The position numbers and the translations under genes were made by a program. Of a stretch of 32,000 nucleotides of DNA, positions 1 to 24,199 are shown one piece after another (the stretch's first letter is position 1; every line of letters begins with the position of its first letter). Source of the DNA: Corynebacterium amycolatum (GTDB taxonomy: Bacteria > Actinomycetota > Actinomycetes > Mycobacteriales > Mycobacteriaceae); NCBI RefSeq assembly GCF_049243625.1, contig NZ_CP046975.1. One strand, written 5' to 3'. The notes below the pieces were generated by a model, which was given only the letters and a program-made list of their open reading frames with translations, was not told the DNA's origin and searched no databases.

Positions 1-1315
1 TCGAAGCCGGCAGAACATTCGGAATCGCCGTGACCTTCAAAATGTCCGGGGCGTGACCGCCACCGGCGCCTTCAGAGTGGAAGGTGTGGATGGTCTGGTC
101 ACCAATGGCTTTGCGCGTGTCCTCGAAGAAACCTGACTCGTTGAGCGTATCCGTGTGGATGGCCAGCTGAACGTCGTACTTATCGCAGATGTCCAGCGCA
201 TTGTGAATAGTCGCAGGTGTCGCGCCCCAGTCCTCGTGAATCTTGAGCCCGGCAGCGCCAGCGAGTAGCTGTTCAACCAGCGCGTCCGGCTGACTGCCCG
301 AACCCTTGCCCAGGAAACCAGCATTGACCGGCAGACCCTCTGCCGCGCGCAGCATGGTGTGAATATGGAATTGACCAGGCGTACACGTCGTGCCCTTTGA
401 CCCCTCCGCAGGCCCGGTACCGCCACCGAAGAACGTCGTAATGCCGTTGGAGAGACCCTCTTCGGCCTGCTGCGGTGCCAGGTAGTGGATGTGCGTATCG
501 ATGCCACCGGCCGTCAGCAGTCGATGCTCACCGGCAATAACCTCGGTACCAGCACCAATGACCAGGTCGGGGTGAACTCCGTCCTGCGTATGCGGGTTGC
601 CCGACTTACCAATTGCGACAATCTTGCCATCTCGCAGACCCACGTCTGCCTTGACGACGCCCAGGAGAGCATCAACAATAATCGCGCTCGTAATAACCGT
701 ATCGGGCGTGCCTTGTGCGCGAGTTGCCTGCGGATCTTGGGCCATGCCGTCACGGATGGACTTACCGCCGCCATAGATGGACTCGTCGCCGGGGAAGTTG
801 GCCGTGTAGTCCTTCTCGATTCGAATGACCAGATTGGTATCCGCCAGCGGTACTACATCGCCGGTTGTGGGGCCGGAGAGCTCCGCGTATCTCGACGAGC
901 TGATCGTCGTTTCCTCATCCGCGGCAACTGGCATCGGTTCTGCAGGCTCGTGCGCAAAACCGTAGTCGGCAATTCGCTGAAAGGCAGCTTCCCGAGTGGC
1001 TTCATCATCCAGCGGGCCCTCAGTCATCCCCGCGAAGCCGTGGATAATGCGGTCTCCACCGAAGTCGACCAGTGTGACCGTCTTGGTATCGCCGGGTTCA
1101 AAGCGCACTGCCAGGCCGGCGGGGATATTTAGGTGCATTCCCCAGGCCTGATGGCGATCAAAGCAAAGGGCCGCATTGGCTTCGAAGAAGTGATAGTGAG
1201 AACCGACCTGGATTGCGCGGTCGCCGGTATTGGCCACCTTTAGTCGCAGAGCGCGGCGGCCTTTATTCAGAACTATTTGTCGACAATCTGTGTTGTTACT
1301 CGGTTGCATCTGCAT
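1..1315 (-). CDS. ureC: Urease beta-alpha fusion (UreB domain fused in frame to UreC). The 3' end runs off the window.
   Basis: I hand-translated the minus strand from the ATG at 1315 (AGGAAA lies 7-8 nt upstream; an alternative ATG is at 1309). The N-terminal part, [104 protein letters not shown], carries UreB hallmarks. It continues with no stop through [91 protein letters not shown]. Spot checks further on show [11 protein letters not shown] (487-517) and [30 protein letters not shown] (2-94), which are UreC hallmarks in the same frame. The ORF is missing from the ORF track because it has no stop inside the window. Confidence 0.9.
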
Positions 1316-2225
1316 CGATATTTCCTAGGTCAAACTCAGTGTGGACATCTGCGCTGTGATGGTGGTGATGATGGTTGTGACCATGACCGTGACTGTGCCC
1401 ATGCACGTGGCCGTGGTGATGATGACCGTGGCCATGCACGTGGCCGTGACTGTGTCCATGGCCGCCATCCTCCTCGCCGTGACTATGGGCATAACCGTGC
1501 TCATGATCGGCAAGTAATGCTGCCTCAATGCCGTCATCATCATGCGACTGCAAAAGATGCAGAGCGGTTTTAGCAGACTGGGAGATGGCCGTCGCCAGTG
1601 CAGTACTGGTGATGAGTGGTTTTTGATTCTCGGCTGTCTGCAAATCAGCGCGGATTACTGTGCTCCGACGGGTTGGGCGCAAGGACTCGTCGTCAAGCGT
1701 GGCTTTATACGGTGCCAGCGTCTGCGAGACGGATGGGTAGACATCGTCGAACGCGACCACTACATCGGCGCCAGAACTGTGCGTCCACGCCAGACGAGCG
1801 ATACGGAACAGCTCCGCGTCCGCGAACGGATCGATGGCAGCGGAACATATGACCGCGATATCGTCGGCCGAGGTCTCGCGCCGGAGCGTTGCGCGTAGAA
1901 ACGCCAGCGTGGTGGTGGCACCCAGCGGCGGTGCCGCGAGTGCAATGCGCACATTCGAGTGATTGCGCTTGAACCACTGACAAGTCTTGGCCGTGTCGGC
2001 GATGAGTGGCAGATTGCGGCCACTTGTCATGGGCATAACGACGATATGGAGATTCTCGGTGTCCTCGCGGCCCAAATCCGCCAGTGTGCTGCGCAGCTCG
2101 GTGCCTGTGGAGGTCACGATGGTCTGATCAAAAGTGTCGAGGCCCTCTACTGCGGTGGTGATGAACTCTGGGCTGGCATCGACTCCGCAGTGAGCGATGA
2201 GGATACGTGGGGTCTGGGCTGCCAT
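1296..2225 (-). CDS. His-rich protein embedded in the urease operon, possibly a two-domain CbiX/SirB-like (class II chelatase-like) fold with a poly-His tail. Function unknown; putative Ni-binding.
   Basis: The ORF is 309 aa with GC3-rich codon usage like its neighbours. Its ATG directly abuts the ureA stop (AAATAGATGGCA), and its last codons overlap the ureB-ureC start. The C-terminus is [50 protein letters not shown]. The N-terminal two-thirds shows two repeated strand-loop patterns (RILIAHCG...[10 protein letters not shown]...[11 protein letters not shown] and [23 protein letters not shown]...VVVAFDD...TVIRADL). From memory these resemble CbiX/SirB, and the size and His tail resemble the long form CbiXL. 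Confidence 0.8.
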
Positions 2226-2534
2226 CTATTTGCCGCCAATTGGGTCATGGACGGATACGAGCTTTGTGCCATCGGTGAAGGTGGCCTCGACCTGTACCAG
2301 CATGATTGCCTCGCGGACACCATCGAGGACATCGTCAGGTCCGAGTACCTCGGTGCCAATGGTCATGGCTTCGGACACGGTCACACCATCTCTGGCGGCT
2401 TCGACGACGGCATCGCTAATCAGTGCTACTGCTTCGGGCCGGTTGAGTTTTAGACCGCGGTTCTTTCGTCGCTCGGCGACACGAGCTGCAAGAAAGAGCA
2501 TGAGTTTATCTTGCTCGCGCGGGGTGAGGCGCAT
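2226..2534 (-). CDS. ureA: Urease gamma subunit
   Basis: 102 aa: [99 protein letters not shown]. This is the canonical UreA sequence pattern. Confidence 0.95.
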
Positions 2535-2607
2535 GTGTTACCTGCCTAACTGCTCAAAATGTGTGCTCATTGAGACTCAACGCCAGTTCGTACTATATCT
2601 GATTTCA

Positions 2608-2623
2608 CAGCAAATAATTGCTG
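2608..2623. promoter_or_regulatory. Candidate operator, inverted repeat CAGCAA-N4-TTGCTG, in the ureA/permease divergent region
   Basis: The sequence is cagcaaataattgctg, with perfect 6-bp arms. The same arms recur at 2694-2706. Confidence 0.3.
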
Positions 2624-2693
2624 CACTACCGAATCATGACTGGTTACTTGCAGGCTATGCCTAAGCCAGCCGTATGGGTTTTCGGCGCTGAGG

Positions 2694-2706
2694 CAGCAAT
2701 TTGCTG
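2694..2706. promoter_or_regulatory. Candidate operator, inverted repeat CAGCAA-N1-TTGCTG (second copy)
   Basis: The sequence is cagcaatttgctg. The 6-bp arms are identical to those of the site at 2608-2623. Confidence 0.3.
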
Positions 2707-2801
2707 GGCAGCATTACAGCTGATGACCGGCCTATAGTTGGGCGGCTGGTGTGGGGTAGCTGAAGGAAGTAGCTGTCGTGAACTGACATCAGGGGTATCT
2801 C

Positions 2802-4496
2802 ATGACGACCACAATGGCCGACGCTAAGCAGGGAAAGCGGAGGGCGGGAAATACTGGGTCGTCATCGAAGTTGGGTGACGACTATCCGCTCCGATTCGCG
2901 CCACGACACTACCGAACGTGGACACCAGTAGCAGTTGCCGGCTCGGCACTGGGAGGAATGGCCTACTTGGCTGACTTCTCCATCGGTGCTGGAATCGGCA
3001 TTGCTCACGGAACAACAAACGCTGTGGTTGGCATTCTCATCGCCGCAGTCTTGATTTTTCTCTCCAGCGCGCCGCTGGCAATCTACGCCGCAAAGTTCAA
3101 TCTCGACCTCGACCTCATCACACGCGGTTCCGGCTTTGGCTACTACGGCTCCGTAATCACCAACGTCATTTTCGCGACTTTTACATTCATCTTCTTCGCC
3201 ACCGAAGGCGCAATTATGGCCCAGGGCCTAAAGCTCGGGCTCGGGATACCACTTTGGCTGGGATACCTGGTGAGCGTGCTCATCATCATCCCCGTAGTGG
3301 TTTTCGGAATGAAGACGCTACAGAAGATGCAGACGTGGACCAACCCACTCTGGCTAGTCATGATGGTGCTACCGATGGTGTATCTCGTCGTCAGGCACCC
3401 TGACTCCGTGGACGCTTTCTTGCATTATCAGGGGCAGGGAGAAGGTCCTAGCCTGGCGGCAATGATGGCTTCTGCCGGTGTGTGTTTGGCGCTGGTGGCG
3501 CAGATTGCCGAGAACATTGACTACATCCGTTTCATGCCGCCGAAGACAAAGGACAACGCCACGTCGTGGTGGGCCTCGGTCATCATGGCTGGGCCGGGAT
3601 GGGTTATCTTCGGTGCAGCTAAGCAGATTATCGGTGTGTTTCTCGCGGTCTACATGATTTCGGTGGTCGGCGGCGGCATGACCGAAGCCGTTGAGCCAGT
3701 GCATCAGTTCATGACGGTGTACCAGGAAATGGTGCCCACGTGGCTGGCAATCACGCTGGCGGTCGTCTTGGTGGTGATGAGCCAAATCAAGATCAACGCC
3801 ACGAATGCATACTCTGGCTCGCTGGCGTGGACTAACGCCTACACGCGAGTGGCAAAGTCCTATCCGGGACGCATTGTCTTCGTCTTCGTCAATCTCGGCA
3901 TCGCACTGGCGCTTATGGAGTTCGACATGTTCTCCATGCTCAATGCGGTTCTGGGGTTCTACTCAAACCTCGCCATTGCGTGGATTTTCACAGTGGCTAC
4001 GGACATTGCAATTAACAAGTGGGTCCTGAAGATCTCGCCGATTTATCCCGACTACCGACGCGGAATGATTCACGACTTCAACCCCGTCGGCATTACCTCG
4101 CTCGTTGCTTCCGCGACAATCTCAATCGCCATGTACTTCGGCGCTTTCGGCGAGAGCTTGGTGCCGTACTCCGCACTCGTCGCCGCAGCAATCGCCTTCG
4201 TCGTCACGCCGACGATGGCAATTCTGACTAAGGGGCGCTACTACCGACGTCGCTTTGACGACGGCATCGCCGCACCGCTTTTCGACGAGCACGGGAACCC
4301 ATCCAATGAGTCTTTCACCTGTGTCATCACCGGTGAACAGGTCGAACGACCTGATGTAATCCTTTCGGCGGAGCGTGGCGACGATGGCGCGGAGCAGTAC
4401 ATATCCTCGCTCGCACTGACAATGGACCGCGACGGCCGACATGTTATGCCGGCTCAATCGCGGCGGGGGCGTAGCGCATCAGTGCGAACGTCCTGA
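2802..4496 (+). CDS. NCS1-family (purine-cytosine/allantoin/hydantoin permease-like) transporter with a roughly 90-aa hydrophilic C-terminal tail
   Basis: The ORF is 564 aa and has about 12 hydrophobic segments. Motifs such as DLITRGSGFGYYGS and ENIDYIRFMP are typical of CodB/NCS1-like permeases. It is transcribed divergently from ureA. Confidence 0.75.
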   Translation: MTTTMADAKQGKRRAGNTGSSSKLGDDYPLRFAPRHYRTWTPVAVAGSALGGMAYLADFSIGAGIGIAHGTTNAVVGILIAAVLIFLSSAPLAIYAAKFNLDLDLITRGSGFGYYGSVITNVIFATFTFIFFATEGAIMAQGLKLGLGIPLWLGYLVSVLIIIPVVVFGMKTLQKMQTWTNPLWLVMMVLPMVYLVVRHPDSVDAFLHYQGQGEGPSLAAMMASAGVCLALVAQIAENIDYIRFMPPKTKDNATSWWASVIMAGPGWVIFGAAKQIIGVFLAVYMISVVGGGMTEAVEPVHQFMTVYQEMVPTWLAITLAVVLVVMSQIKINATNAYSGSLAWTNAYTRVAKSYPGRIVFVFVNLGIALALMEFDMFSMLNAVLGFYSNLAIAWIFTVATDIAINKWVLKISPIYPDYRRGMIHDFNPVGITSLVASATISIAMYFGAFGESLVPYSALVAAAIAFVVTPTMAILTKGRYYRRRFDDGIAAPLFDEHGNPSNESFTCVITGEQVERPDVILSAERGDDGAEQYISSLALTMDRDGRHVMPAQSRRGRSASVRTS

Positions 4497-10258: not shown

Positions 10259-10515
10259 AGCTGCCGGTATGTCAACGGCGCGCGTCGGTCGCGGTCCACG
10301 GATCTTTAAGGGTCACTCAAATAGGGCCAGCCCGGCGCTTACACCTGATGTCTTGCGTAGAATTTACGCAAAAGGTGTACGTCACGGCGCGACTTCGCGC
10401 CAAGACGGTGGCATTATAGATAAAGCAAACCCGACCGACGGCGGATTTGACGGCCAATTGCAATCCCGTAATTGAGCCTCACCGCCAAACCGATTTGAAA
10501 CGAGTGGGGAATCAA

Positions 10516-12648
10516 GTGGCTGAAGGTGCACTTCCCGTTAAGAAGGACCTCCACAAGGTCCGCAACATCGGCATCATGGCGCACATCGATGCTGGTAAGA
10601 CGACTACGACCGAGCGCATCCTGTACTACACGGGTATTAACCGCAAGGTCGGCGAGACTCACGATGGTGCGTCCACAACCGACTGGATGGAGCAGGAGAA
10701 GGAGCGCGGTATTACCATTACCTCCGCTGCTGTGACCTGTTTCTGGAACGACAACCAGATCAACATCATCGATACCCCGGGTCACGTCGACTTCACCGTT
10801 GAGGTCGAGCGTTCCTTGCGTGTGCTCGACGGTGCCGTCGCAGTCTTCGACGGTAAGGAAGGTGTCGAGCCGCAGTCTGAGCAGGTTTGGCGTCAGGCTC
10901 AGAAGTACGATGTCCCACGTATTTGCTTCGTCAACAAGATGGACAAGCTGGGCGCTGACTTCTACTACACCGTTGGCACCATCGTTGACCGCCTGGGCGC
11001 TAAGCCGTTGGTTATGCAGCTGCCGATTGGCGCTGAGGATGACTTCGACGGCGTTGTTGACCTGCTGGAGATGAAGGCCCTCATGTGGCCGGGCAAGGTC
11101 GAGATTGGCACTCCTGCGCAGGTCGAGGAGATTCCGGCTGACCTGGTCGACAAGGCTAACGAGTACCGTGAGAAGCTCATTGAGACCGTCGCTGAGTCCG
11201 ACGAGGAGCTCATGGAAAAGTACTTCGGTGGCGAAGAGCTGACCATGGACGAGATTAAGGGCGCCATCCGCAAGATGGTTCTGAACTCTGAGGTCTACCC
11301 GGTCTACTGTGGTACCGCTTACAAGAACAAGGGTGTTGAGCCGCTGCTCGACGCTGTCATTGACTTCCTGCCGAATCCGCTGGACATCGGTGAGGTGCAC
11401 GGCCACCAGATGGGCGACGAGGACGTCGATATGGTTCGTAAGCCGTCTAAGGATGAGCCGTTCTCTGCTCTTGCATTCAAGATCGCTGCTCACCCGTTCT
11501 TCGGTAAGCTGACCTTCGTCCGCGTTTACTCCGGTCGCGTGGAGCCGGGCCAGCAGGTCCTGAACTCCACCAAGGACAAGAAGGAGCGCGTCGGTAAGCT
11601 GTTCCAGATGCACGCCAACAAGGAGAACCCTGTTGACGAGGCAGTGGCAGGTAACATCTACGCCTTCATTGGTCTGAAGGACACCACCACTGGTGACACC
11701 CTGTGTGCACAGGATGCTCCAATCGTTCTGGAGTCCATGTCCTTCCCGGATCCGGTTATCTCCGTTGCTATTGAGCCGAAGTCCAAGGCTGACCAGGAGA
11801 AGCTGAGTACCGCTATTCAGCGTCTTGCTGAAGAGGACCCGACCTTCACCGTTCGCCTGGATGAGGAAACCGGCCAGACCGTTATCGGCGGTATGGGCGA
11901 GCTCCACCTTGACGTCCTGGTTGACCGCATGAAGCGCGAGTTCAAGGTCGAAGCAAACATCGGTAACCCGCAGGTTGCTTACCGCGAGACCATCCGCAAG
12001 CCGGTCGAGAAGTTCGAGTACACCCACAAGAAGCAGACCGGTGGTTCGGGTCAGTTCGCCCGCGTCATCATTGCTCTGGAGCCTTACGCTCCGTCTACTG
12101 ACGAGGTTGAAGAGGGTGAGTCCACCACTTACAAGTTCGTCAACGAGGTGACCGGTGGCCGTGTTCCGAAGGAATACATTCCATCTGTCGACGCTGGTAT
12201 TCAGGACGCAATGCAGTACGGTACCCTGGCTGGCTACCCGCTGGTGAACATCCAGGCAACCCTGCTCGACGGTGCTTACCACGAGGTTGACTCCTCTGAA
12301 ATGGCCTTCAAGATTGCTGGTCAGCAGGCTCTGAAGGAAGCTGTCCAGAAGGCTAAGCCGGTCCTGCTTGAGCCGATGATGGCCGTTGAGGTCATTACTC
12401 CGGAAGAGTACATGGGTGAGGTCATCGGTGACATCAACTCCCGTCGTGGTCAGGTTAACTCCATGGAGGACCGTACGGGCGTCAAGGCTGTTAAGGCTCT
12501 GGTTCCGCTGTCCGAGATGTTTGGCTACGTTGGTGACCTGCGTTCCAAGACCCAGGGTCGCGCTAACTACACCATGATCTTCGACTCCTACGCTGAGGTT
12601 CCTTCCTCCGTGGCCGAGGAGATCATTGCAGCGCGCACCGGCGCTTAA
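10516..12648 (+). CDS. fusA: Elongation factor G
   Basis: [40 protein letters not shown] is followed by full-length EF-G. I chose the GTG at 10516 (GGGGA upstream), giving 710 aa. The track start at 10447 adds a non-homologous extension. Confidence 0.97.
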
Positions 12649-12958
12649 ATTGCATCGGCAGGGTGGGGCGCTCTATCAGGGCTGACCCCATCTCTGTGCG
12701 CACTGCGCTGTCACTCTTTTTAGACGGTGCAGTGCGAGGGTCTGCAGCTTTTTAGTAGATTCCCTTAAGATTTGACTGTGCTGAGATGTCGCCAGACTCT
12801 TGGCTCGTGTTAGCACAGGCAAGCTCTTGGGGTAGCTGCTCGCAATTCATATCGTTGGGCGATTTTAGATCGCAACTCAAATATCTAGTATTTATGCAGG
12901 TAAATGACGATGTGAGTTGCTGGCCGTTACCCACCCTTAACTAGGGGGTTGGTCTGGT

Positions 12959-12988
12959 TTGGAAAACTCCAGTATCCTGCCCTAGTAT
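12959..12988 (+). promoter_or_regulatory. Candidate tuf promoter (TTGGAA-N18-TAGTAT)
   Basis: The -35-like TTGGAA is at 12959-12964 and the -10 TAGTAT is at 12983-12988. Flanking strings (tggccgttaccc, gtaactggcaca, cacagtgaaag, gtggctgcgaRagtcgtRgccacc, tccaggaggac) match my recollection of the C. glutamicum Ptuf region in the equivalent order. Confidence 0.5.
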
Positions 12989-13151
12989 CGAGTAACTGGC
13001 ACAGTGAAAGAATAGTGCTCTTTTGCGCGCGCACGTTCCGAAGTCGTAAGCGAACAGCTTGAAAGCTTCTGATGTTGTGAAGGCGGATTGAGTGACCACA
13101 AAATTGTGGCTGCGAGAGTCGTGGCCACCTAGACCTCCAGGAGGACTAAAA

Positions 13152-14342
13152 GTGGCAAAGGCGAAGTTCGAGCGTACGAAGCCGCACGTCAACATCGGTA
13201 CCATTGGTCACGTTGACCACGGTAAGACCACCACTACCGCCGCTATCACCAAGGTTCTGGCTGACAAGTACCCGGACCTGAACCAGTCGTTCGCTTTCGA
13301 CGCTATTGACAAGGCGCCGGAAGAGCGGGAGCGCGGTATTACCATCAACGTCTCGCACGTTGAGTACCAGACCGAGAAGCGTCACTACGCTCACGTCGAC
13401 GCTCCGGGCCACGCCGACTACATCAAGAACATGATCACCGGTGCTGCTCAGATGGACGGCGCGATTCTGGTTGTCGCCGCTACCGACGGTCCGATGCCGC
13501 AGACCCGTGAGCACGTTCTCCTGGCTCGCCAGGTTGGCGTTCCGTACATCCTCGTTGCACTGAACAAGTGCGACATGGTTGACGATGAAGAGATCATCGA
13601 ACTCGTCGAGATGGAGATTCGCGAGCTGCTGGCTGAGCAGGACTACGACGAAGAGGCTCCGATTGTTCACATCTCCGCTCTGAAGGCTCTTGAGGGCGAC
13701 GAGAAGTGGGCAGAGTCCATCGTCGAGCTCATGCAGGCTTGTGACGACAACATCCCGGACCCGGTCCGCGAGACCGACAAGCCGTTCCTGATGCCGATTG
13801 AGGACATCTTCACCATTACCGGTCGCGGCACCGTTGCTACCGGTCGTGTTGAGCGCGGCGTTCTGAACGTCAACGACGAGGTGGAGATTCTGGGCATCAA
13901 GGAGAAGTCCCAGAAGACCACCGTTACCGGTATCGAGATGTTCCGCAAGCTGCTGGATTCCGCTGAGGCTGGCGACAACTGTGGTCTGCTGCTCCGCGGT
14001 ACCAAGCGTGAGGACATCGAGCGCGGTCAGATCGTTGCTAAGCCGGGCGCTTACACCCCGCACACCGAGTTCGAGGGTTCCGTCTACATCCTGTCCAAGG
14101 ATGAGGGCGGCCGCCACACCCCGTTCTTCAACAACTACCGTCCGCAGTTCTACTTCCGCACCACCGACGTCACCGGCGTCGTTTCCCTGCCGGAAGGTGT
14201 CGAGATGGTCATGCCGGGCGACAACGTTGACATGTCTGTCAAGCTGATCCAGCCGGTCGCAATGGACGAGGGCCTGCGCTTCGCTATCCGCGAGGGTGGC
14301 CGCACCGTCGGCGCTGGCCGCGTTACCAAGATCATTAAGTAA
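13152..14342 (+). CDS. tuf: Elongation factor Tu
   Basis: [27 protein letters not shown]...GRVTKIIK, 396 aa. The GTG at 13152 is preceded by CCAGGAGGA. The track start at 13092 is an upstream in-frame extension. Confidence 0.98.
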
Positions 14343-14384
14343 GTCTTCTCCCCAATGGGGAAATGCTTTAGCTAGGTCTTAGAA

Positions 14385-14424
14385 GAATCCCGACTCCGCG
14401 TAAGCGGAAGTCGGGATTCTTTGT
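14385..14424 (+). terminator. Rho-independent terminator after tuf
   Basis: An 11-bp perfect stem, gaatcccgact (14385-14395) / agtcgggattc (14409-14419), is followed by tttgt. Confidence 0.8.
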
Positions 14425-14470
14425 ATCTGTACATAGCCGACATTAGACGGGATGGGACCGGCGCAATAGC

Positions 14471-14481
14471 CGTCGTTAAGC
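14471..14481 (+). repeat. One-mismatch copy of the intergenic 11-mer (CGTCGTTAAGC)
   Basis: Located in the tuf-rpsJ spacer, with a single A-to-T difference from the consensus. Confidence 0.4.
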
Positions 14482-14741
14482 AGACTGTTCCGTAATGGGT
14501 GTGATGTACGTTGCACTTTGGAATCGCGATTTTACATTTGCAGTGTGGTCGTGCTTTAATACGGAGGTTGCTTTAACAAAGGCGTTCGCGCCAATTGTTG
14601 TATCAGGCCCAGCTGGGAACCAGTACGAAATTGGACTTAGCGCCTATGGTAAGGCGAGCATGACCACGTAGGGAAGTTTCTTCCCAATCGTGCCTCACGG
14701 AGAAAACGGGCGACACGCCCGACCGCGGGGGTCGGAGGTGG

Positions 14742-14869
14742 CATGGCAAATTAACAGCGGCAGTAGGCAAAATGAAGAGCCCCACGAGGGGGGACTTGTT
14801 TTCCACTGGGATTTGAGTGCAAGGCGTTATTCGTCCGCTCGGGTCATGGCCAAAAGTTAATTTGCCATG
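14742..14869. repeat. 14-bp perfect inverted repeat CATGGCAAATTAAC / GTTAATTTGCCATG separated by 100 nt
   Basis: The arms lie at 14742-14755 and 14856-14869 in the non-coding tuf-rpsJ spacer. Confidence 0.8.
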
Positions 14870-15013
14870 ACGATCGAAGACGAAATCGCTTTGAAGTAAT
14901 GCACAACCCAGTTTTAATTTCTGGCGCTGGCCATAGTTGCTGACGGCGTCGAGAAACATTGACAGGGTCGACGCCCCTTTAATTGGGGCGCGCCGACCGA
15001 GGAGAGGACAAGC

Positions 15014-15319
15014 GTGGCCGGACAGAAGATCCGCATCAGGCTCAAGGCCTACGACCACGAGGCTATCGACGCTTCTGCGCGAAAGATCGTGGAGACCGTT
15101 ACCCGTACGGGTGCACGCGTCGTTGGCCCGGTGCCGTTGCCAACCGAAAAGAACGTTTACTGCGTTATCCGTTCGCCGCACAAGTACAAGGACTCGCGCG
15201 AGCACTTCGAGATGCGCACTCACAAGCGTCTGATCGACATTCTCGATCCAACGCCGAAGACCGTCGATGCACTTATGCGCATTGACCTTCCGGCAAGTGT
15301 CGATGTGAACATTCAGTGA
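15014..15319 (+). CDS. rpsJ: 30S ribosomal protein S10
   Basis: The GTG start is preceded by GAGGAGAGG. (M)[33 protein letters not shown] is the canonical S10 sequence. Confidence 0.98.
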
Positions 15320-15350
15320 TCCTGGACTTTTGGTAGCGGAGACAAGATAA

Positions 15351-16007
15351 ATGAGTGAAAACGAGATCAAGGGCATCCTGGGCACGAAGCTCGGTATGAC
15401 TCAGATCTTCGACGAGGAAAACCGCGTTGTTCCGGTTACCGTCGTTGAGGCTGGGCCGTGCGTAGTGACTCAGGTGCGCACTAAGGAAACCGACGGCTAC
15501 GACGCCGTCCAGATTGCATACGGCGAAATTGACCCACGTAAGGTCAACAAGCCGGAGGCCGGCCACTTCAAGAAGGCCGGTGTGACCCCGCGTCGCCACA
15601 GCGTCGAGATTCGCACCCCGGACGCTTCCTCTTACGAGGTCGGCCAGTCCGTTGGTGTCGACATCTTTGGCGAAATTGAGTACGTCGACGTCACTGGTAC
15701 CTCCAAGGGCCACGGCTTTGCCGGTGGTATGAAGCGCCACGGCTTTGCTGGCCAGGGTGCTGCTCACGGTAACCAGGCTGCTCACCGTCGTGTTGGTGGC
15801 ATTGGCGCCTGCGCCACGCCAGGACGCGTCTTCAAGGGCAAGCGCATGGCAGGCCGCATGGGTAACGACCGGGTCACAACCCAGAACCTGAAGATCCAGA
15901 AGGTTGACGCTGACGCGAACCTGCTGCTCATCAAGGGCGCAGTTCCGGGTGCACGCGGCGGCCTGCTGGTTGTTAAGACTGCCACGAAGGGTGGTGCTCA
16001 CGCATGA
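15351..16007 (+). CDS. rplC: 50S ribosomal protein L3
   Basis: [35 protein letters not shown] is an L3 hallmark. Confidence 0.98.
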
Positions 16008-16651
16008 CCAACCTCAAGCTAGACGTACACACCGCTGAAGGCGGCGTGAACGGTTCGGTTGAGCTTCCTGCTTCCGTGTTCGACGCGGAGGTGTCCATCG
16101 CCCTGATGCACCAGGTTGTTGTCGCGCAGCGTGCAGCAGCTCGCCAGGGCACCCACAAGGTCAAGACCCGCGGCGAGGTTCGCGGCGGTGGCCGCAAGCC
16201 GTGGCGCCAGAAGGGTACCGGTCGCGCTCGTCAGGGTTCGATCCGTGCTCCGCACTGGACCGGCGGTGGCATTGTCCACGGCCCGGTGCCGCGCGACTAC
16301 AGCCAGCGCACCCCGAAGAAGATGATTGCAGCTGCACTGCGTGGCGCACTCTCTGACCGTGCTCGCCACGACCGCATCCACGTTGTCGAGGAACTGGTCC
16401 CAGGCCAGACCCCGTCCACCAAGGCAGCTCGTACTTTCGTCGAGCGTCTGACTGAGCGCAACAACGTGCTCGTCGTTCTGCCACGCGAGGACGTCAACTC
16501 GTGGAAGTCGGTTCGTAACCTGCCAGGTGTCCACATCCTGTCTGAGGATCAGCTGAACACCTACGACGTTCTGAAGGCCGATGACGTCATCTTCGCCGTT
16601 CAGGCGCTTAATGACTTCATCACTCGCACCGCCGGTAAGGAGGAGAAGTAA
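16004..16651 (+). CDS. rplD: 50S ribosomal protein L4
   Basis: The start overlaps the rplC stop (ATGA). ...[31 protein letters not shown] is an L4 hallmark. Confidence 0.98.
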
Positions 16652-16956
16652 TGGCTACCATCGCAGATCCCCGCGACATCATTGTTGCACCGGTAGTGTC
16701 TGAGAAGTCCTACGGACTCATGGAGCAGGGCGTTTACACGTTCCTGGTTCACACCGACGCTAACAAGACCCAGATCAAGATCGCGGTCCAGGAGATTTTC
16801 GGTGTCAAGGTCGCTTCCGTCAACACCCTCAACCGTGAGGGCAAGCGCAAGCGTTCCCGCACCGGCTACGGCAAGCGCAAGAACACCAAGCGCGCCTACG
16901 TGACTCTCGCGGCCGGCAGCGATCCCATCGACATCTTCGGCGGTTCGGCAGCCTAG
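16651..16956 (+). CDS. rplW: 50S ribosomal protein L23
   Basis: The start overlaps the rplD stop (TAATG). [16 protein letters not shown]...KRAYVTL is the L23 pattern. Confidence 0.97.
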
Positions 16957-16993
16957 CCGCTAGCCGACGAGGAAGTTAAGGAAGAGCAAGAGT

Positions 16994-17836
16994 ATGGCTA
17001 TTCGTAAGTACAAGCCGACTACGCCGGGTCGCCGCCAGAGCTCCGTCTCCGAGTTCAGCGAGGTTACTCGCTCGACTCCTGAGAAGTCTCTGCTGCGCCC
17101 GCTGTCGAAGACTGGTGGCCGTAACGTACACGGCCACATCACCACTCGCCACAAGGGTGGCGGACACAAGCGCCAGTACCGTGTCATCGACTTCCGTCGT
17201 AATGACAAGGACGGCATTCCGGCAAAGGTCGCTCACATCGAGTACGACCCGAACCGTACCGCCAACATCGCACTGTTGCACTACGCAGACGGTGAGAAGC
17301 GCTACATCATCGCTCCGAAGAACCTGAAGCAGGGTGCCATCGTTGAGTCTGGCGCTAATGCCGACATCAAGGTTGGCAACAACCTGCCGCTGCGTAACAT
17401 CCCGACCGGTTCCACCATTCACTGCGTGGAGCTCAAGCCGGGTGCCGGTGCACAGCTGGCACGTTCTGCTGGTGCTTCTATTCAGCTTCTCGGTAAGGAA
17501 GGCAAGTACGCAGTTCTGCGTATGCCTTCTTCTGAGATTCGTCGCGTTGACGCTCGTTGCCGCGCAACCGTCGGTGAGGTCGGAAATCAGGATCAGATCA
17601 ACATTCGTTGGGGCAAGGCCGGCCGTATGCGCTGGAAGGGCTGGCGCCCGACTGTCCGCGGTGTTGTCATGAACCCGGTCGACCACCCGCACGGTGGTGG
17701 TGAGGGTAAGACCTCCGGTGGTCGCCACCCGGTTTCCCCGTGGGGCCAGAAGGAAGGCCGCACCCGTAAGCCGAACCGCCCGAGCGACCAGCTGATCGTT
17801 CGTCGCCGTCGTACCAACAAGAATAAGAAGCGCTAA
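16994..17836 (+). CDS. rplB: 50S ribosomal protein L2
   Basis: [21 protein letters not shown]...[26 protein letters not shown]. Confidence 0.98.
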
Positions 17837-17850
17837 GGAGGGAACTGAGA

Positions 17851-18129
17851 ATGCCACGCAGCCTTAAGAAGGGCCCGTTCGTCGATGAGCACCTCCTCGC
17901 GAAGGTCGATGCACAGAACGAGAAGGGCACCAAGCAGGTCATCAAGACCTGGTCTCGCCGCTCCACGATTCTCCCCGATTTCATCGGCCACACCTTCGCC
18001 GTTCACGACGGTCGCAAGCACGTGCCGGTGTTCGTGGATGACTCTATGGTCGGCCACAAGCTGGGCGAATTCGCCCCGACCAAGACCTTCAAGGGTCACG
18101 TCAAGGATGACAAGAAGGGACGTCGATAA
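17851..18129 (+). CDS. rpsS: 30S ribosomal protein S19
   Basis: [19 protein letters not shown]...[17 protein letters not shown]. Confidence 0.98.
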
Positions 18130-18132
18130 GCC

Positions 18133-18495
18133 ATGAGCAACGACATTACTTCTGCACGCGCAACTGCGCGCTTCGTCCGCGTTACTCCGATGAAGGCACG
18201 TCGCGTCCTGGACACCGTTCGCGGTAAGTCCGTCGACGAGGCACTGAACATCCTGGAGTACGCACCGCAGGGTGCTGCTGATCCAGTTGCCAAGGTTGTT
18301 GCGTCTGCAGCTGCAAATGCTGAGAACAACTTCGGCCTGGACCGTCGTACTCTGGTCATCTCCGAGGCTTACGCCAACGAGGGACCGACCATGAAGCGCT
18401 TCCGCCCGCGTGCGCAGGGCCGTGCTTTCCACGTCCGCAAGCGCACCAGCCACATCACCGTGGTCGTCGAGAGCCAGAAGGAAGGTGACCGATAG
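18133..18495 (+). CDS. rplV: 50S ribosomal protein L22
   Basis: [39 protein letters not shown]. Confidence 0.97.
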
Positions 18496-19235
18496 TGGGA
18501 CAGAAGATCCATCCACACGGTCTTCGCCTCGGTATTTCCAGCGACTGGAAGTCCCGCTGGTACGCCGACAAGCAGTACGCTGACTACCTGGCCGAGGACA
18601 TCAAGATCCGCGATCTGCTGTCCACCGGTCTTGAACGCGCCGGCATCTCCGATGTCGTTATCGAGCGCACCCGTGACCGCGTGCGCGTCGACATCCACAC
18701 CGCACGCCCGGGCATCGTTATCGGTCGTCGTGGCTCCGAGGCTGACCGCATTCGCGGCCAGCTCGAGAAGCTCACCGGCAAGCAGGTTCAGCTGAACATC
18801 CTCGAGGTCAAGAACATTGACGCGGATGCGAAGCTGGTTGCTCAGTCCATCGCTGAGCAGCTCGCCAACCGTGTCGCTTTCCGTCGTGCAATGCGCAAGG
18901 CTATCCAGTCTGCAATGCGTCAGCCGCACGTCAAGGGCATCAAGGTTGTCTGCTCCGGTCGTCTCGGCGGTGCCGAGATGGGCCGCACCGAGCGCTACCA
19001 CGAGGGTCGCGTTCCGCTGCACACCCTGCGTGCGGAGATCGACTACGGCACCCACGAAGCTCACACCACCTTCGGTCGCATTGGCGTCAAGGTGTGGATC
19101 TACAAGGGTGACGTGATCGGTGGCCGTCGCGAGTCCGAGATCAACGCCGGCAACGCCCGCCAGCGTCGCGGCAACGACCGCCCGCGTCGCGGTGGCAAGC
19201 GTCGTCAGCGTGCATCTGAGAAGAAGGAGGGCTAA
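18495..19235 (+). CDS. rpsC: 30S ribosomal protein S3
   Basis: The GTG start overlaps the rplV stop. [31 protein letters not shown], with a basic RG-rich C-terminal tail. Confidence 0.98.
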
Positions 19236-19238
19236 TTC

Positions 19239-19655
19239 ATGCTCATCCCGAAGCGCGTTAAGTTCCGTCGTCAGCACCGCCCGACCCGTTCTGGTATGTC
19301 CAAGGGCGGCAACAAGGTGACTTTCGGTGAATACGGTCTCCAGGCTCTCGAGCCGGCCTACATCACCAACCGTCAGATTGAGGCAGCGCGTATTGCCATC
19401 AACCGCCACGTCAAGCGTGGTGGTAAGGTCTGGATCCAGATTTTTCCGGACCGCCCGCTGACCCAGAAGCCACTGGGTGTTCGTATGGGTTCCGGTAAGG
19501 GCCCGGTCGAAAAGTGGGTTGCAAACGTCAAGCCGGGTCGCATCATGTTCGAGATGTCCTACCCGGACGAGGCAGTTGCTATCGAGGCACTGAAGCGCGC
19601 AGGCGCTAAGCTGCCGATTAAGACCCGAATCGTTCGGAAGGAGGATCAGTACTGA
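19239..19655 (+). CDS. rplP: 50S ribosomal protein L16
   Basis: [36 protein letters not shown]. Confidence 0.98.
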
Positions 19656-20258: not shown

Positions 20259-20364
20259 GGCAAGCCATGTTTCTTCGTGTTTCTAGTCTCTTCAGTGCAG
20301 GTTTGCTGGGTTTTATCTCTGATAGCATTGGCGACGATTTGTGCTTTGTGAGGGGAGAAGTTCG

Positions 20365-21714
20365 GTGACTACTGACGTGACCAGGATTGATGATCGAGAC
20401 CTGGAGTCCGCGCTTCGCTCACACGACGTGGCGACATTGTCGCGGCTCTTAACTGATGTTGAGCCCAAAGCTGCCGCTCGAAAGATGCGCCGCCTCAGCC
20501 ATGAGGAACGTGCGCTGTTCTACCGCACACTGCCGAAAGACACGGCGGTTGAAACCTTCGATGAGCTGGACTCAGCGCTGCAGGCGCATCTGATCGACAG
20601 CCTCCGTGATCCTGAAGTCACCGCAGTCTTTGCGGAGATGGAACCGGACGACCGAGCTGAGTTGCTCGATGAGCTACCAGCCTCGGTTGCTTCAAAGCTG
20701 CTGGCCGATTTGCCGGATGATGAGCGCGAGCTCACCAACATTGTTCTCGGCTACCCCGACGGTTCCATTGGCCGCCGTATGAGCCCGGAGCTGGTATCGC
20801 TTCACGACGACATGACGGTGGGGAAAGCCCTCGAGACCGTCTGCAAGCATCTGGATGATGCCGAGTCTATCTACACCTTGCCGGTGTCGAACCGGAATCG
20901 CCGACTGATGGGCGTGGTAAGTCTTCGTGATTTGATGCGCGCCGACCGTGATATCCATGTGTCGGCAATTTTGAGGAAGGCCGACTACGCAGAGGCCACC
21001 GAGTCCGAAGAGAAGGTGGCTCGCATGTGCGCCAATCGTAAGCGCTTAGCTCTACCGATCGTCGATAGCAAGCAGCGTGTTATCGGCCTGCTCACGGTGG
21101 ACGACGCACTCCGGATTCTGGAGGAAGCAGATTCCGAGGACCAAGCTCGTATTTCCGGTTCTGAGCCACTGCGCTTGCCGTACCTTGCTACGCCAATCTT
21201 TGAGATTGTTCGCTCTCGTGTGGTCTGGTTGCTCGTGCTGGCAATCGGTGCGACATTGACCGTGCAAGTCCTGGAAACCTTCGAAGAGACTCTGTCTCAG
21301 ATGGTCGTTCTCTCAGTGTTCGTACCGCTGCTGATTGGTACAGGTGGCAATACCGGTAACCAGGCTGCAACTACGATTACGCGTGCGTTGGCGCTGGGGG
21401 ATGTCCAACCGCGAGATATATTCAAGGTCATTCTCCGAGAGGTGAGGGTCGGCGCGTTCCTCGGTCTATTGCTTGGTTCTCTAGGCCTACTATTGGCTGG
21501 ATTGTTCTACGGTTGGGACATCGGCCTCGTTATCGGCCTGACGCTGCTGGGTATTTGTACCCTCGCGGCAACCGTCGGTGGCATCATGCCGCTGATTGGT
21601 AAGAAGTTCGGCATTGACCCAGCAGTCTTCGCGAACCCGTTTATTACGACGCTTGTTGATGCCTCCGGTCTGATTATCTACTTCCTGATCGCTAAGTCGG
21701 TACTGGGGATTTAG
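20365..21714 (+). CDS. mgtE: Magnesium transporter MgtE
   Basis: An MgtE N-domain (PEVTAVFAEMEPDDRAELLDELP) and a CBS pair are followed by the TM domain with FVPLLIGTGGNTGNQAAT. I prefer the GTG at 20365 (AGGGGAG 7 nt upstream) over the track start at 20341. Confidence 0.9.
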   Translation: MTTDVTRIDDRDLESALRSHDVATLSRLLTDVEPKAAARKMRRLSHEERALFYRTLPKDTAVETFDELDSALQAHLIDSLRDPEVTAVFAEMEPDDRAELLDELPASVASKLLADLPDDERELTNIVLGYPDGSIGRRMSPELVSLHDDMTVGKALETVCKHLDDAESIYTLPVSNRNRRLMGVVSLRDLMRADRDIHVSAILRKADYAEATESEEKVARMCANRKRLALPIVDSKQRVIGLLTVDDALRILEEADSEDQARISGSEPLRLPYLATPIFEIVRSRVVWLLVLAIGATLTVQVLETFEETLSQMVVLSVFVPLLIGTGGNTGNQAATTITRALALGDVQPRDIFKVILREVRVGAFLGLLLGSLGLLLAGLFYGWDIGLVIGLTLLGICTLAATVGGIMPLIGKKFGIDPAVFANPFITTLVDASGLIIYFLIAKSVLGI

Positions 21715-21749
21715 ACCCCACGGTGCGCAGCTGCACCGATACATAAAAA

Positions 21750-22424
21750 GTGTCCAGCTGCGCCATAATGGTGGCCATGAGCAATGGCACCCACAATCAC
21801 CGCACTTGGAAAGAAATTATTGCCGCCGATCCGCAGCATTCTCGGCGCTACGCCAACCGGTGGCGGGGATTCGTGCGCGAGGGCCGCGATATCGATGGCG
21901 AGGCGCGGCTGGTGGATGCGATGGCGCCACGCCACGCTCGAATTCTAGATGCCGGCTGCGGACAGGGGCGCGTGGGCGGTTACCTGGCGAAGGCTGGGCA
22001 CCGAGTCATGGGCGTCGATGTCGACCCCTATCTCATCGATGAGGCGAAACGCCAGTTCCCGGACGCGACGTGGTTGGTAGGGGATTTGGCGCAATTGGCG
22101 CACGTGCTTGACGACGGCCTCGAGAACACGCCCCACGATGACACGGCATCCGCTTTCGATGTCATCATTTGCCCCGGCAATGTCCTGACCTTCGTAGCGC
22201 CAGAAGACCGCACGAAGGTACTGCAGGCCTTCGCAGCGGCACTGAATCCGGAGGGCGGTCGTGCCATCATCGGCTTCGGTGCCGGCCGTGGCTGGGACTT
22301 TGCGGATTTTGAAACCACTGCGCAGGAGGCGGGGCTCACCGTGATTCAGCGTTATTCGACGTGGGATCTTCGTCCGTTTGAGGATGAGTCTCAGTTCCTG
22401 GTTGCAGTGCTTGAACGGGGGTAG
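21750..22424 (+). CDS. Class I SAM-dependent methyltransferase
   Basis: Motif I is ILDAGCGQGRVGGYLAKAGHRVMGVDVD. The exact start is uncertain, with alternative ATGs at 21768 and 21777. Confidence 0.8.
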   Translation: MSSCAIMVAMSNGTHNHRTWKEIIAADPQHSRRYANRWRGFVREGRDIDGEARLVDAMAPRHARILDAGCGQGRVGGYLAKAGHRVMGVDVDPYLIDEAKRQFPDATWLVGDLAQLAHVLDDGLENTPHDDTASAFDVIICPGNVLTFVAPEDRTKVLQAFAAALNPEGGRAIIGFGAGRGWDFADFETTAQEAGLTVIQRYSTWDLRPFEDESQFLVAVLERG

Positions 22425-22435
22425 AGAGCTGTGAT

Positions 22436-22446
22436 CGTCGTAAAGC
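22436..22446 (+). repeat. Copy of the intergenic 11-mer CGTCGTAAAGC
   Basis: Exact match, 81-91 nt upstream of the FNT gene start. Confidence 0.7.
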
Positions 22447-22526
22447 GGTTGCGATTCCGTGCCGGACTATCGTTATTCTTTTATGCGAATAACTGCAATT
22501 AACGGCACGCAGGGAAGGCTTCGGCG

Positions 22527-23309: not shown

Positions 23310-23353
23310 CTTTTGAGCTTTGCCGGAGCCTATCCGACGACCTATCTCAAGGG

Positions 23354-24070: not shown

Positions 24071-24199
24071 GGCAGGACCTTTCTCCCATGTCAGCCTCAC
24101 GCCTACGGGTGGTACGAGGCCTCACCATCGATTTAATGCCGATTCGGGCACATTCTCAACCAGTGAAGTGAAACGAGGGCAGTCCTCTCGTATGTAGTT

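Follow-up and report, generated by a model that had tools for sequence, protein, structure and literature searches.

Urease maturation is a textbook case of nickel trafficking, and its accepted helpers are UreD, UreE, UreF, and UreG. UreE is encoded after ureC, together with ureF, ureG, and ureD; it has a conserved site that contains His, followed at the C terminus by a His-rich tail that varies. Disordered His-rich segments tied to a nickel enzyme also occur in Hpn, Hpn-2, the HypB N terminus, the SlyD tail, and the His-rich N termini that some UreG proteins carry. The Hpn-type proteins are short and almost wholly His rich.

Class II chelatases are the closest described structures to the protein reported here. 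Their long forms (Bacillus megaterium CbiXL, Bacillus subtilis SirB, and actinobacterial CbiX) have two α/β domains and are found in a siroheme or cobalamin context. The metal ligands of SirB are His10, Glu43, and His76 (PMC11301274), and CbiXL ends in a His-rich region (PMC8179277). The type I Ni-sirohydrochlorin chelatase CfbA combines the class II chelatase fold with a flexible His-rich segment and belongs to a nickel pathway (PMC8179277). CfbA is a small homodimer with His9/Glu42/His75 active sites that work on sirohydrochlorin.

Here we describe a 309-aa protein, X, encoded in a urease operon of Corynebacterium amycolatum, within a stretch of 32,000 nt (the window). X has the class II chelatase fold and a His-rich C terminus, a combination that recalls the fold and the His-rich segment of CfbA type I. 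It belongs to a conserved, uncharacterized family and is probably an undescribed nickel helper. Our search of open-access full text, with subscription-only papers outside its scope, found no report of urease operons that include a CbiX-like gene.

The X gene lies between ureA and a fused ureBC

The minus strand of the window is the coding strand for ureA, X, and the fused ureBC, as determined by ORF analysis (Table 1). Pfam recognized Urease_beta (1.2e-40), Urease_alpha (1.1e-45), and Amidohydro_1 (1.2e-36) in the fused product. The reverse complement of positions 2223 to 2228 reads TAGATG, so that the TAG stop of ureA abuts the ATG of X. The X gene ends with a TAA at 1296 to 1298. The ureBC start is either the ATG at 1315 (MQMQPSNN...) or the ATG at 1309, giving an overlap with X of 20 nt (about 6.7 codons) or 14 nt, respectively. 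An earlier reading from sequence only had placed a 309-aa gene directly after the ureA stop, with its last 6 to 7 codons overlapping the ureBC start; its coordinates were right in every case, with minus as the strand. We found no consensus sigma-70 site in the intergenic region upstream of ureA, and no terminator-like site within ureA-X-ureBC on the coding strand.

Table 1. Features of the X locus and of the X protein, in window coordinates
Feature	Coordinates	Strand	Basis
Fused ureB-ureC (urease beta + alpha), cut by the left edge of the window	1..1315	-	Pfam domains
Translational-coupling junction, where the ureBC start codon falls within the X 3' end (last 6 codons + stop)	1296..1315	-	Sequence reading
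X (309-aa chelatase-fold His-rich protein; ORF including stop)	1296..2225	-	ORF, homologues, AlphaFold2, Foldseek
His-rich disordered tail of X (residues 251-295), suggested to store or capture nickel	1341..1475	-	His count, pLDDT
X residues 223-250, conserved His cluster; proposed specific metal site	1476..1559	-	Conservation
X residues 121-222, C-terminal α/β domain	1560..1865	-	AlphaFold2 secondary structure, conservation, hhalign
X residues 1-120, N-terminal α/β domain	1866..2225	-	AlphaFold2 secondary structure, conservation, SirB alignment
ureA (urease gamma subunit, 102 aa)	2226..2534	-	Pfam Urease_gamma 5.8e-43; NCBIfam urease subunit gamma
Divergent intergenic region, ureA / NCS1-like permease; presumed operon promoter/regulatory region	2535..2801	.	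Gene layout

X has a class II chelatase fold and lacks the chelatase ligands

The AlphaFold2 model of X has a mean pLDDT of 86 and a pTM of 0.79, and residues 1 to 245 are confident. The model contains two tandem Rossmann-like α/β domains that form a cleft. A Foldseek search of the PDB returned class II chelatases as the best matches, namely CbiK (2xvx; E of 4e-5), Deinococcus radiodurans DR2241 (2jh3; the third-best structural match), SirB (5zt7), and ferrochelatases. The top chelatase matches had TM scores of 0.45 to 0.6, all with a probability of 1.00; for SirB the E value was 6e-4, and the TM scores were 0.48 and 0.56. X thus has the same two-domain fold as CbiXL and the SirB-type long forms. 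The duplicated CbiX/SirB-type fold suspected from the sequence is therefore borne out by model and structure search alike, and the two strand-loop motifs named there are strand 1 (residues 7 to 13) and strand 5 (residues 123 to 128), one in each domain.

The N-terminal domain includes the G14 loop, the P65-x3-G69-R70 loop, and R111. The C-terminal domain contains the family signature D132-P-F-A-D-A-E-L-F-R141-I-A-R-L145 and most of the long C-terminal helix (residues 207 to 228); hhalign aligned a segment of this domain to the SirB segment 'GRGSSDPDVKRDV'. Residues G14, P65, R70, R111, F134, R141, H247, and H249 are invariant in the family.

The fold of X is apparent from structure comparison only, and sequence similarity to chelatases is marginal. 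Pfam and NCBIfam searches with X gave no family at an E value of ≤1, Pfam CbiX (PF01903) included. CbiX matched 32 of 59 family members weakly, with a best E value of 6.9e-7. A phmmer search of PDB sequences with X returned His-tag artefacts only, and the family profile found no solved chelatase among the same sequences.

The sequence-only reading had asked whether the catalytic His residues are retained, and they are not. By hhalign and MAFFT, the positions of SirB His10, Glu43, and His76 are occupied in X by C13 or V15, T38, and P73, where the alignment of strand 1 is uncertain by 1 to 2 residues. The His76 position is lost across the whole family. In 77% of the family, a His occupies the His10 position or an adjacent one; the clade of the window protein is an exception. 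In addition, the [4Fe-4S] motif of CbiXL (MxCxxC; MNCDxCxYR in canonical relatives) is absent, and X has no Cys there. In place of this motif, X carries a new conserved His-cluster motif. Because X has neither the Fe-S motif nor the metal ligands of chelatases, it is a chelatase-fold protein but probably not a chelatase.

The proposed resemblance of X to CbiXL holds in part. Beyond the X family, the closest sequences are the long CbiX/SirB forms P0183, P0190, P0195, P0197, and P0200, and another long form, P0187, ends in a His-rich tract as X does. However, the Fe-S motif and the CbiX sequence signature are missing from X. The DR2241 relatives P0167 and P0169 (444 to 465 aa) are also among the nearest nonfamily sequences. 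Like X, they lack the N-terminal GHGS and have DDG...HxH after the chelatase core; P0185, a weaker match to the family, has the HxH segment without the DDG. Unlike X, DR2241 and these relatives continue into an additional C-terminal domain, about 180 aa long. The P0167 locus (a 2.4-kb contig), the only DR2241-type locus examined, contained no urease genes.

A conserved His cluster precedes a variable His-rich tail

X contains 33 His residues, 6 within residues 1 to 240 and 27 within the 55 residues from 241 to 295. The sequence-only reading, which gave about 30 in about 50 C-terminal residues, came close to this count. The pLDDT stays near 95 through residue 240, falls to about 65 thereafter, and is about 50 or lower from residue 268 on. 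The cluster at the base of the tail runs in the order H223, H228, DDGI, H241, H243, G244, H247, S248, H249, and G250. Among 82 nonidentical sequences, where H247 and H249 never vary, H243 is conserved in 98%, H228 in 95%, H223 in 93%, and H241 in 89%.

The tail that follows the cluster is present in all family members and varies from 6 to 85 residues with 2 to 30 His. Such wide variation in His number is expected of a loosely constrained, possibly dispensable feature, and it counts against the reading of X that we favor below. HxH repeats occur in zinc proteins too, which counts against a nickel reading; the best match of the X tail among PDB sequences is a ZnuA loop.

A pair of His residues in the cleft, H15 and H105, is found in 77% of the family and is absent from the subtype of the window protein, which has V at position 15. 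Therefore, a cleft-based mechanism is inapplicable to the window protein.

X occupies a fixed slot in actinobacterial urease operons

The X family is small, with 228 matches at an E value of ≤1e-3 among 1.84 billion representatives. In a collection of species-representative genomes, 185 matching stretches encode an X relative when searched with a 13-sequence alignment. Homologues occur in many genera, down to 27 to 30% identity, with loci in Corynebacterium, Streptomyces, Kitasatospora, Dietzia, Rhodococcus, Arthrobacter, Microbacteriaceae, and others.

We examined 93 loci. The ureB gene lies directly 3' of X in all 93, and ureA lies directly 5' in 92; the remaining contig ends too soon. In an 88-locus subset analyzed by tblastn, UreA is directly upstream and UreB directly downstream in 88 of 88, and UreC, UreF, UreG, and UreD come next unless the contig ends; over all loci examined, these genes nearly always follow. 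The expectation that homologues are linked to urease genes in other genomes was thus confirmed at every locus examined. The two nearest relatives (69 to 70% identity) have the order permease-ureA-X-ureBC-ureF-ureG-ureD. Three loci (L001, L094, and L095) encode full-length fused ureBC orthologues of 706 to 710 aa, followed by ureF, ureG, and ureD. The most distant members (P0096, P0098, P0088, and P0162) also sit in the ureA-ureB slot, as far as their contigs reach. In nearly all loci the ureA stop and the X start are spaced by -4 to +4 nt, and the X/ureB junction measures -11 to +60 nt in most related loci. In L020, L038, and L068 the X frame continues beyond the usual stop, which we took as frameshifts or assembly effects.

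The identity of X between loci correlates with that of UreC, UreG, UreF, and UreD (r = 0.91 to 0.96; 0.96 for UreC) and with that of UreA (r = 0.91). The median pairwise identity of X is 46%, versus 73 to 75% for UreA and UreC. Given the homologues in many genera, the shared operon slot, and a divergence that tracks UreC, the X ORF is a real gene and not a chance frame.

The UreB proteins of X operons have a C-terminal extension (LDDxxxRxRAxxRxxxxGF). We considered it as a feature specific to these operons and dropped it, since Sporosarcina pasteurii UreB presumably carries a similar one.

No ureE is found in the X operons examined

X and UreE share the company of ureF, ureG, and ureD and the arrangement of a variable His-rich tail behind a conserved His-containing site. 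However, X is not homologous to UreE. It has neither the UreE_N nor the UreE_C domain of Pfam nor the GNRH motif, its fold is different, it is twice the size of UreE, and it is encoded between ureA and ureB instead of after ureC.

It had been suggested that ureE might be missing from such operons. The window itself ends within ureBC, and none was found in the related loci examined. The gene lists of these loci contain no UreE Pfam domain. The window and the 93 loci together contain 9,394 ORFs, among which an HMM and phmmer search gave no UreE match, at the low sensitivity of four nonactinobacterial seeds and no positive control. In most loci, ureC and ureF lie too close together for a gene to fit between them. 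Two larger gaps were considered as places for ureE and ruled out: the ureF-ureG gap of L037 holds an MFS transporter, and the ureC-ureF gap of L027 holds an IS605 TnpB. UreG in X operons begins M(T/S)ENVLRVGIGGPVGSGKT, and a His-rich N-terminal extension is absent in nearly all loci. A ureE gene could lie elsewhere in X-carrying genomes, outside the scanned loci.

Discussion

The sequence-only reading had proposed that X supplements or replaces UreE. The context fits, with X in the ureA-ureB slot, ureF, ureG, and ureD nearby, and no ureE; nickel binding and delivery are what we infer. On balance, X is rather likely to be a urease-dedicated accessory protein that would supply nickel, as a metallochaperone or a reservoir, and would replace UreE in the operon type ureA-X-ureB-ureC-ureF-ureG-ureD, which is widespread in Actinomycetota. 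A specific role is indicated by the constant position of X within the structural block and by the lack of ureE in these operons.

We suggest that the ancestor of X may have been a class II chelatase of the long CbiX/SirB type whose C terminus was already His rich. X would have retained the two-domain scaffold, lost both the Fe-S motif and the ligands of a tetrapyrrole chelatase, and acquired the conserved cluster (H223, H228, H241, H243, H247, and H249) at the base of the disordered tail. In this scenario, the tail would pick up several Ni(II) ions, the cluster would be a defined transfer site, and the H15/H105 pair may join in the transfer in most family members. The folded domain may dock on a putative partner, either UreG or the UreDFG-apourease complex, and pass the nickel on as UreE does. 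Coupling to both ureA and ureB would yield about one X per urease protomer, so that each active site, with its 2 Ni, might have its own preloaded donor. Because mycobacterial ureABCFGD operons function without UreE or X, X may be dispensable.

X could instead be a mere store or buffer of nickel or other divalent metals like Hpn or Hpn-2, coexpressed with urease to keep Ni at hand locally or to shield the cell, with no specific hand-off and no replacement of UreE. A disordered tail of highly variable length and His count would suit this, as would the high, stoichiometric expression expected from coupling to the structural genes, and the role of the His-rich regions of CbiXL and CfbA is itself unresolved (PMC8179277). 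Against it stands the folded domain of 245 residues with Arg, Asp, and His invariant across many genera, which is excess constraint for a metal sponge. Hpn-type proteins have no such core, whereas X is His rich only in residues 241 to 295 and holds a constant operon slot in the structural block that, with no ureE, points to a specific role. We consider a mere store unlikely. The slot, coupled on both sides, is also typical of fixed-ratio subunits, and the correlation of X with UreA and UreC would agree with a nonmetal assembly factor or an extra urease subunit, such as a scaffold keeping UreA and UreB(C) in place while they assemble, with the His tail incidental. However, X evolves much faster than UreA and UreC, and its most conserved part is the six-His cluster, followed by the His-rich tail, which is hard to explain without a metal. 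We know of no urease structure that contains an X-like subunit, and we judge such a role quite improbable.

The fold, the weak CbiX matches of some members, and the names of the homologues, which are 'sirohydrochlorin chelatase' or 'CbiX' in most database records, would favor a functional sirohydrochlorin chelatase (for Co, Fe, or Ni) whose place among the urease genes reflects nothing but regulation. This is extremely improbable, because the window protein itself has no CbiX match at an E value of ≤1 and has lost the His10 and Glu43 positions, in addition to the family-wide loss of His76. Moreover, no gene of siroheme, cobalamin, or F430 biosynthesis was seen beside X in the listed flanks of the 93 loci, and all members lie within urease operons; CfbA, in contrast, keeps its active-site residues and its tetrapyrrole substrate. 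To our knowledge, urease uses no tetrapyrrole.

Returning to nickel delivery, a stronger version is tentative and, in our view, doubtful. It holds that X might be a fifth class of urease accessory protein, a class II chelatase scaffold repurposed from metal insertion into a tetrapyrrole to the insertion or transfer of nickel into a protein, either UreG or urease itself at its active site, as a nonhomologous UreE replacement essential for urease activation in hundreds of Actinomycetota species. Nickel would then be relayed through successive stations, the co-occurring H15/H105 cleft pair (in the majority type) and the His cluster near the C terminus.

To UreD, UreE, UreF, and UreG, X adds a fifth, unrelated family in a fixed slot inside the urease structural genes, across many actinomycete lineages and in operons from which ureE is missing. 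If X delivers nickel, it would explain the nickel source of UreE-less operons and provide an example of a chelatase fold recruited to protein metallation. It would also correct the widespread database label 'sirohydrochlorin chelatase / CbiX' and offer a genetic handle for the expression of actinobacterial ureases in other hosts.

Results

Urease genes in the window

The genes ureA, X (the 309-aa His-rich ORF), and ureBC all lie on the minus strand. The ORF reading and the domain matches agree on the position that the sequence-only reading had assigned to X. Translational coupling on both sides, which that reading had also proposed, fits what we found: the ureA stop abuts the X start (TAG-ATG in the reverse complement of 2223-2228), and the 3' end of X, which stops with TAA at 1296-1298, overlaps the start of ureBC by 20 nt if ureBC begins with the ATG at 1315, or by 14 nt with the ATG at 1309. 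The C terminus is nearly as rich in His as described, with 27 of the 33 His in residues 241 to 295 and 6 in residues 1 to 240. A search of the coding strand within ureA-X-ureBC for a terminator-like site found none.

Features of the window
Feature	Coordinates	Strand	Evidence or remark
Fused ureB-ureC	1-1315	-	Urease_beta, Urease_alpha, and Amidohydro_1 domains; continues past the left edge of the window
Match to Rfam RF02514 (5_ureB_sRNA)	457-759	+	Antisense to ureBC; 85 bits, gathering score 40, E 6e-21
Weak sigma-70-like site	651-679	+	Inside the RF02514 match, not upstream
X, 309-aa ORF	1296-2225	-	ORF listing
ureA	2226-2534	-	Pfam Urease_gamma 5.8e-43
564-aa multi-pass membrane protein	2802-4496	+	Divergent from ureA
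Ordinary chromosomal context	10447-19400 and 20341-25441		fusA, tuf, ribosomal protein genes (L3, L4, L2)
After the ribosomal genes			MgtE, methyltransferase, formate/nitrite transporter, VIT1-family protein, MFS transporter

The Urease_beta, Urease_alpha, and Amidohydro_1 domains share one frame, so the window has a ureB-ureC fusion. Such a single ORF, of about 700 to 750 aa with a variable linker, occurs in the window clade (the window protein and its closest relatives), in Dietzia, and in some Corynebacterium (window; loci L001, L002, L094, L095, L085, L010-L013, Dietzia L035, L037, L053, L055, L056, L058, L071). The two genes are separate in Streptomyces, Kitasatospora, and Arthrobacter. 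All UreB versions examined in X operons carry the C-terminal helical extension LDDxxxRxRAxxRxxxxGF. RF02514 is a Helicobacter antisense sRNA family directed against the urease alpha gene; its match here runs antisense to the conserved coding sequence for urease alpha and stays wholly within it, and this match may reflect conservation of that coding sequence rather than an sRNA.

The 564-aa membrane protein had a sole match, to Transp_cyt_pur (NCS1 permease family) at 2.9e-4, below the Pfam gathering score, and no match in NCBIfam. A protein of similar size (551 to 557 aa, no Pfam family on record) adjoins the operon in L001, L002, L094, and L095; in other lineages its place is taken by a UT urea transporter or by an ABC transporter with amino-acid/urea-type binding-protein domains. 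The 564-aa protein could be a urea or nickel importer. A scan of approximately 20 ORFs, extending to about 25.4 kb and so covering all but the final ~6.5 kb of the window, turned up no recognizable nickel transporter. The window also contains a mycolic-acid cyclopropane synthase (CMAS) family gene, and its gene order is syntenic with MAG locus L001. Together with the presence of Corynebacterium among the remoter named homologues, these features point to a Corynebacterium-like member of the Mycobacteriales.

X is embedded in urease operons that lack a detectable ureE

Genomic context is the strongest result on X. With one genome per species, 185,579 species yielded 185 stretches encoding a relative. 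The best 80 of these 185 come from Corynebacterium, Kitasatospora, Streptomyces, Dietzia, Rhodococcus, Arthrobacter, Leifsonia, Microterricola, Microbacterium, Agromyces, Cellulomonas, Oerskovia, Sanguibacter, Lapillicoccus, and an Ilumatobacteraceae MAG; Corynebacterium is among the more distant named homologues. We searched 88 X loci by tblastn with UreA, UreB, UreC, UreF, UreG, and UreD. In all 88, the immediate neighbors of X were UreA on the upstream side and UreB on the downstream side. UreC, UreF, UreG, and UreD come after UreB unless the contig ends, and the order ureA-X-ureB-ureC-ureF-ureG-ureD is seen in MAG loci L001 and L002 (fused ureBC), Corynebacterium L003-L006, and Kitasatospora L007 and L008. 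Spacing between the ureA stop and the X start ranges from -4 to +4 nt in nearly all loci; between X and ureB it is mostly -11 to +60 nt. Even the most remote members P0096, P0098, P0088, and P0162 occupy the ureA-ureB slot where the contig reaches.

The loci whose X is nearest to that of the window, L094 and L095 (69 to 70% identity), read permease-ureA-X-ureBC (710 aa)-ureF-ureG-ureD, and therefore the DNA to the left of the window almost certainly contains ureF, ureG, and ureD. The genes rpsL, rpsG, and fusA lie near the operon in L094, and fusA is in the window too. Between pairs of loci, the identity of X follows that of UreC (r = 0.96) and also those of UreF, UreD, UreG, and UreA; X has therefore long been inherited together with the operon. 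It diverges faster than any of these five, with a median identity of 46%, where UreC has 75% and UreF and UreD have about 60%.

The UreE domain is absent from all gene lists of X loci, and a UreE HMM/phmmer scan, of limited sensitivity, of 9,394 ORFs from 93 X loci and the window found none. The ureC-ureF gap is too small for any gene in most X loci. An MFS transporter gene separates ureF from ureG in Dietzia sp. CH92 (L037, 11875-13077), and an IS605-type TnpB separates ureC from ureF in Kitasatospora sp. MAA4 (L027, 10782-11855); these fill the two large gaps in X operons. Some UreG proteins use a His-rich N-terminal extension. Nearly all UreG of X operons lack one, and their N terminus reads M(T/S)ENVLRVGIGGPVGSGKT.

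X has a chelatase fold with a degenerate catalytic site

X matched nothing in Pfam or NCBIfam even at an E value of ≤1, and its only matches among PDB sequences were His tags. In a confident AlphaFold2 model built with 59 homologues (mean pLDDT 86, pTM 0.79), X forms a pair of alpha/beta domains with a long helix (207-228) after them. Residues 1 to 245 have a pLDDT of roughly 90 to 98, and the tail is disordered from about residue 250. In a Foldseek search of the PDB, class II chelatases came out on top: the best match was CbiK 2xvx (E 4e-5), the third best was DR2241 2jh3, Bacillus subtilis SirB 5zt7 scored E 6e-4 (TM 0.48/0.56), and ferrochelatases and Salmonella typhimurium CbiK 1qgo ranked lower. 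The CbiX/SirB-type fold proposed from the sequence therefore stands as a fold; the family assignment finds no counterpart in Pfam or NCBIfam, and the SirB metal-ligand residues are lost.

At the sequence level the kinship to chelatases is remote. A profile of the X family found no solved chelatase among PDB sequences, and Pfam CbiX matches are weak and present in only 32 of 59 members (best 6.9e-7). The family is small: when 1.84 billion representative proteins were searched with its HMMER profile, only 228 matched at E ≤1e-3, 63 of them at E ≤1e-30. Ranked below the family proper are 444- to 465-aa proteins (P0167, P0169, P0170), the first two of which have Pfam CbiX domains plus an extra C-terminal domain and resemble DR2241. 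Canonical long CbiX/SirB proteins follow, with strong PF01903 scores, the motifs AHGS and PLLLxAxHxKxD, and the Cys motif MNCDxCxYR; some, such as P0187, also end in a His-rich tail. The most divergent X member found, P0162 (L092, GCA_039915955.1, 2018-2887), scores E 1e-22 against the family profile and is still a Pfam CbiX match (1.6e-18). Its gene lies between ureA and ureB, and unrelated genes rather than ureG and ureD come after ureF. P0162 may be an evolutionary intermediate.

The metal site of SirB consists of His10, Glu43, and His76 (PMC11301274). We placed these residues in X by profile-profile alignment and by aligning it to SirB and canonical CbiX proteins in MAFFT. Retention of the catalytic His, a point raised by the sequence-only reading, did not hold for the window X. 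There, P73, next to the invariant R70, takes the place of His76, and the other members aligned have no His at this position either; Glu43 corresponds to T38; and His10 falls on C13 or V15, the alignment of strand 1 being uncertain by 1 to 2 residues. The V15 column is His (motif GGHES) in 77% of 82 non-identical X sequences, which do not include the window clade. The position of the CbiXL Cys motif holds a motif unique to the X family. X has a chelatase fold but lacks the catalytic features that define the chelatase family, and since it lacks them, it is unlikely to metallate a tetrapyrrole.

A conserved His cluster lies at the base of a variable tail

Across the 82 sequences, G14, P65, R70, L110, R111, F134, A137, L139, R141, L145, L204, G232, G244, H247, and H249 are invariant, and H223, H228, H241, H243, D136, D77, and G69 are among those 89 to 98% conserved. 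From the secondary structure of the model and the usual chelatase topology, conserved residues would line the inter-domain cleft where strands 1, 3, 5, 6, and 7 end C-terminally, and others would lie on the C-terminal helix and the segment after it. Columns 15 and 105 are both His in 63 sequences and neither is in 19, with no mixed case; the pair is missing in the window clade, Corynebacterium, Dietzia, and one Rhodococcus. This pattern suggests that the majority type has a metal site in the cleft. Because the losses may reflect few evolutionary events, the co-occurrence hints at such a site but does not prove it.

A His-rich tail is present in all members, with a length of 6 to 85 residues and 2 to 30 His, and thus varies widely. 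In L020, L038, and L068 the X frame runs far beyond the usual stop (349, 1290, and 526 codons) and covers ureB and the genes after it in a different frame. Frameshifts or assembly errors could account for this, as could the long open frames common in high-GC DNA.

Discussion

On balance, we favor X as a urease-specific nickel-binding accessory protein that probably fills the role of UreE, because it is always encoded within a urease operon without ureE and produced along with the structural subunits, because six conserved His are clustered at the base of its flexible, His-rich arm, and because its scaffold descends from proteins that bound Ni, Co, or Fe. Nickel is the presumed metal; HxH repeats occur in zinc proteins as well, and among PDB sequences the tail is best matched by a ZnuA loop. 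The variable tail would equally suit a pure nickel store or buffer, but we consider this rather unlikely, as the conserved fold and fixed operon slot imply more than a sponge. The slot between ureA and ureB would also fit a metal-free assembly factor or an extra urease subunit, a reading made quite improbable by how fast X evolves and by its conserved His cluster. Public records call the homologues "sirohydrochlorin chelatase," "CbiX," or "hypothetical protein"; with the metal ligands lost and a purely urease context, a working sirohydrochlorin chelatase is very hard to credit.

From the anatomy, conservation, and context of X, we infer each step of how a UreE-like protein of this kind might work. 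The tail would gather Ni(II), and the His cluster would serve as the transfer site, with the H15/H105 cleft pair perhaps also involved in most members. Docking would be through the folded domain, onto either UreG or the UreDFG-apourease complex. With translational coupling there would be about one X per protomer, enough for the two Ni of each active site.

UreE would be the closest known protein in function, although X lacks its defining features; CbiXL/SirB is closest in ancestry, although X lacks the defining features of the catalytic CbiX family. X also echoes the His-rich type I CfbA (PMC8179277). We found no description of a CbiX-like gene within a urease operon in the open full-text literature, subscription journals being outside the scope of that search. 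On the reading that we favor, urease maturation would here employ a non-homologous, chelatase-derived stand-in for UreE.
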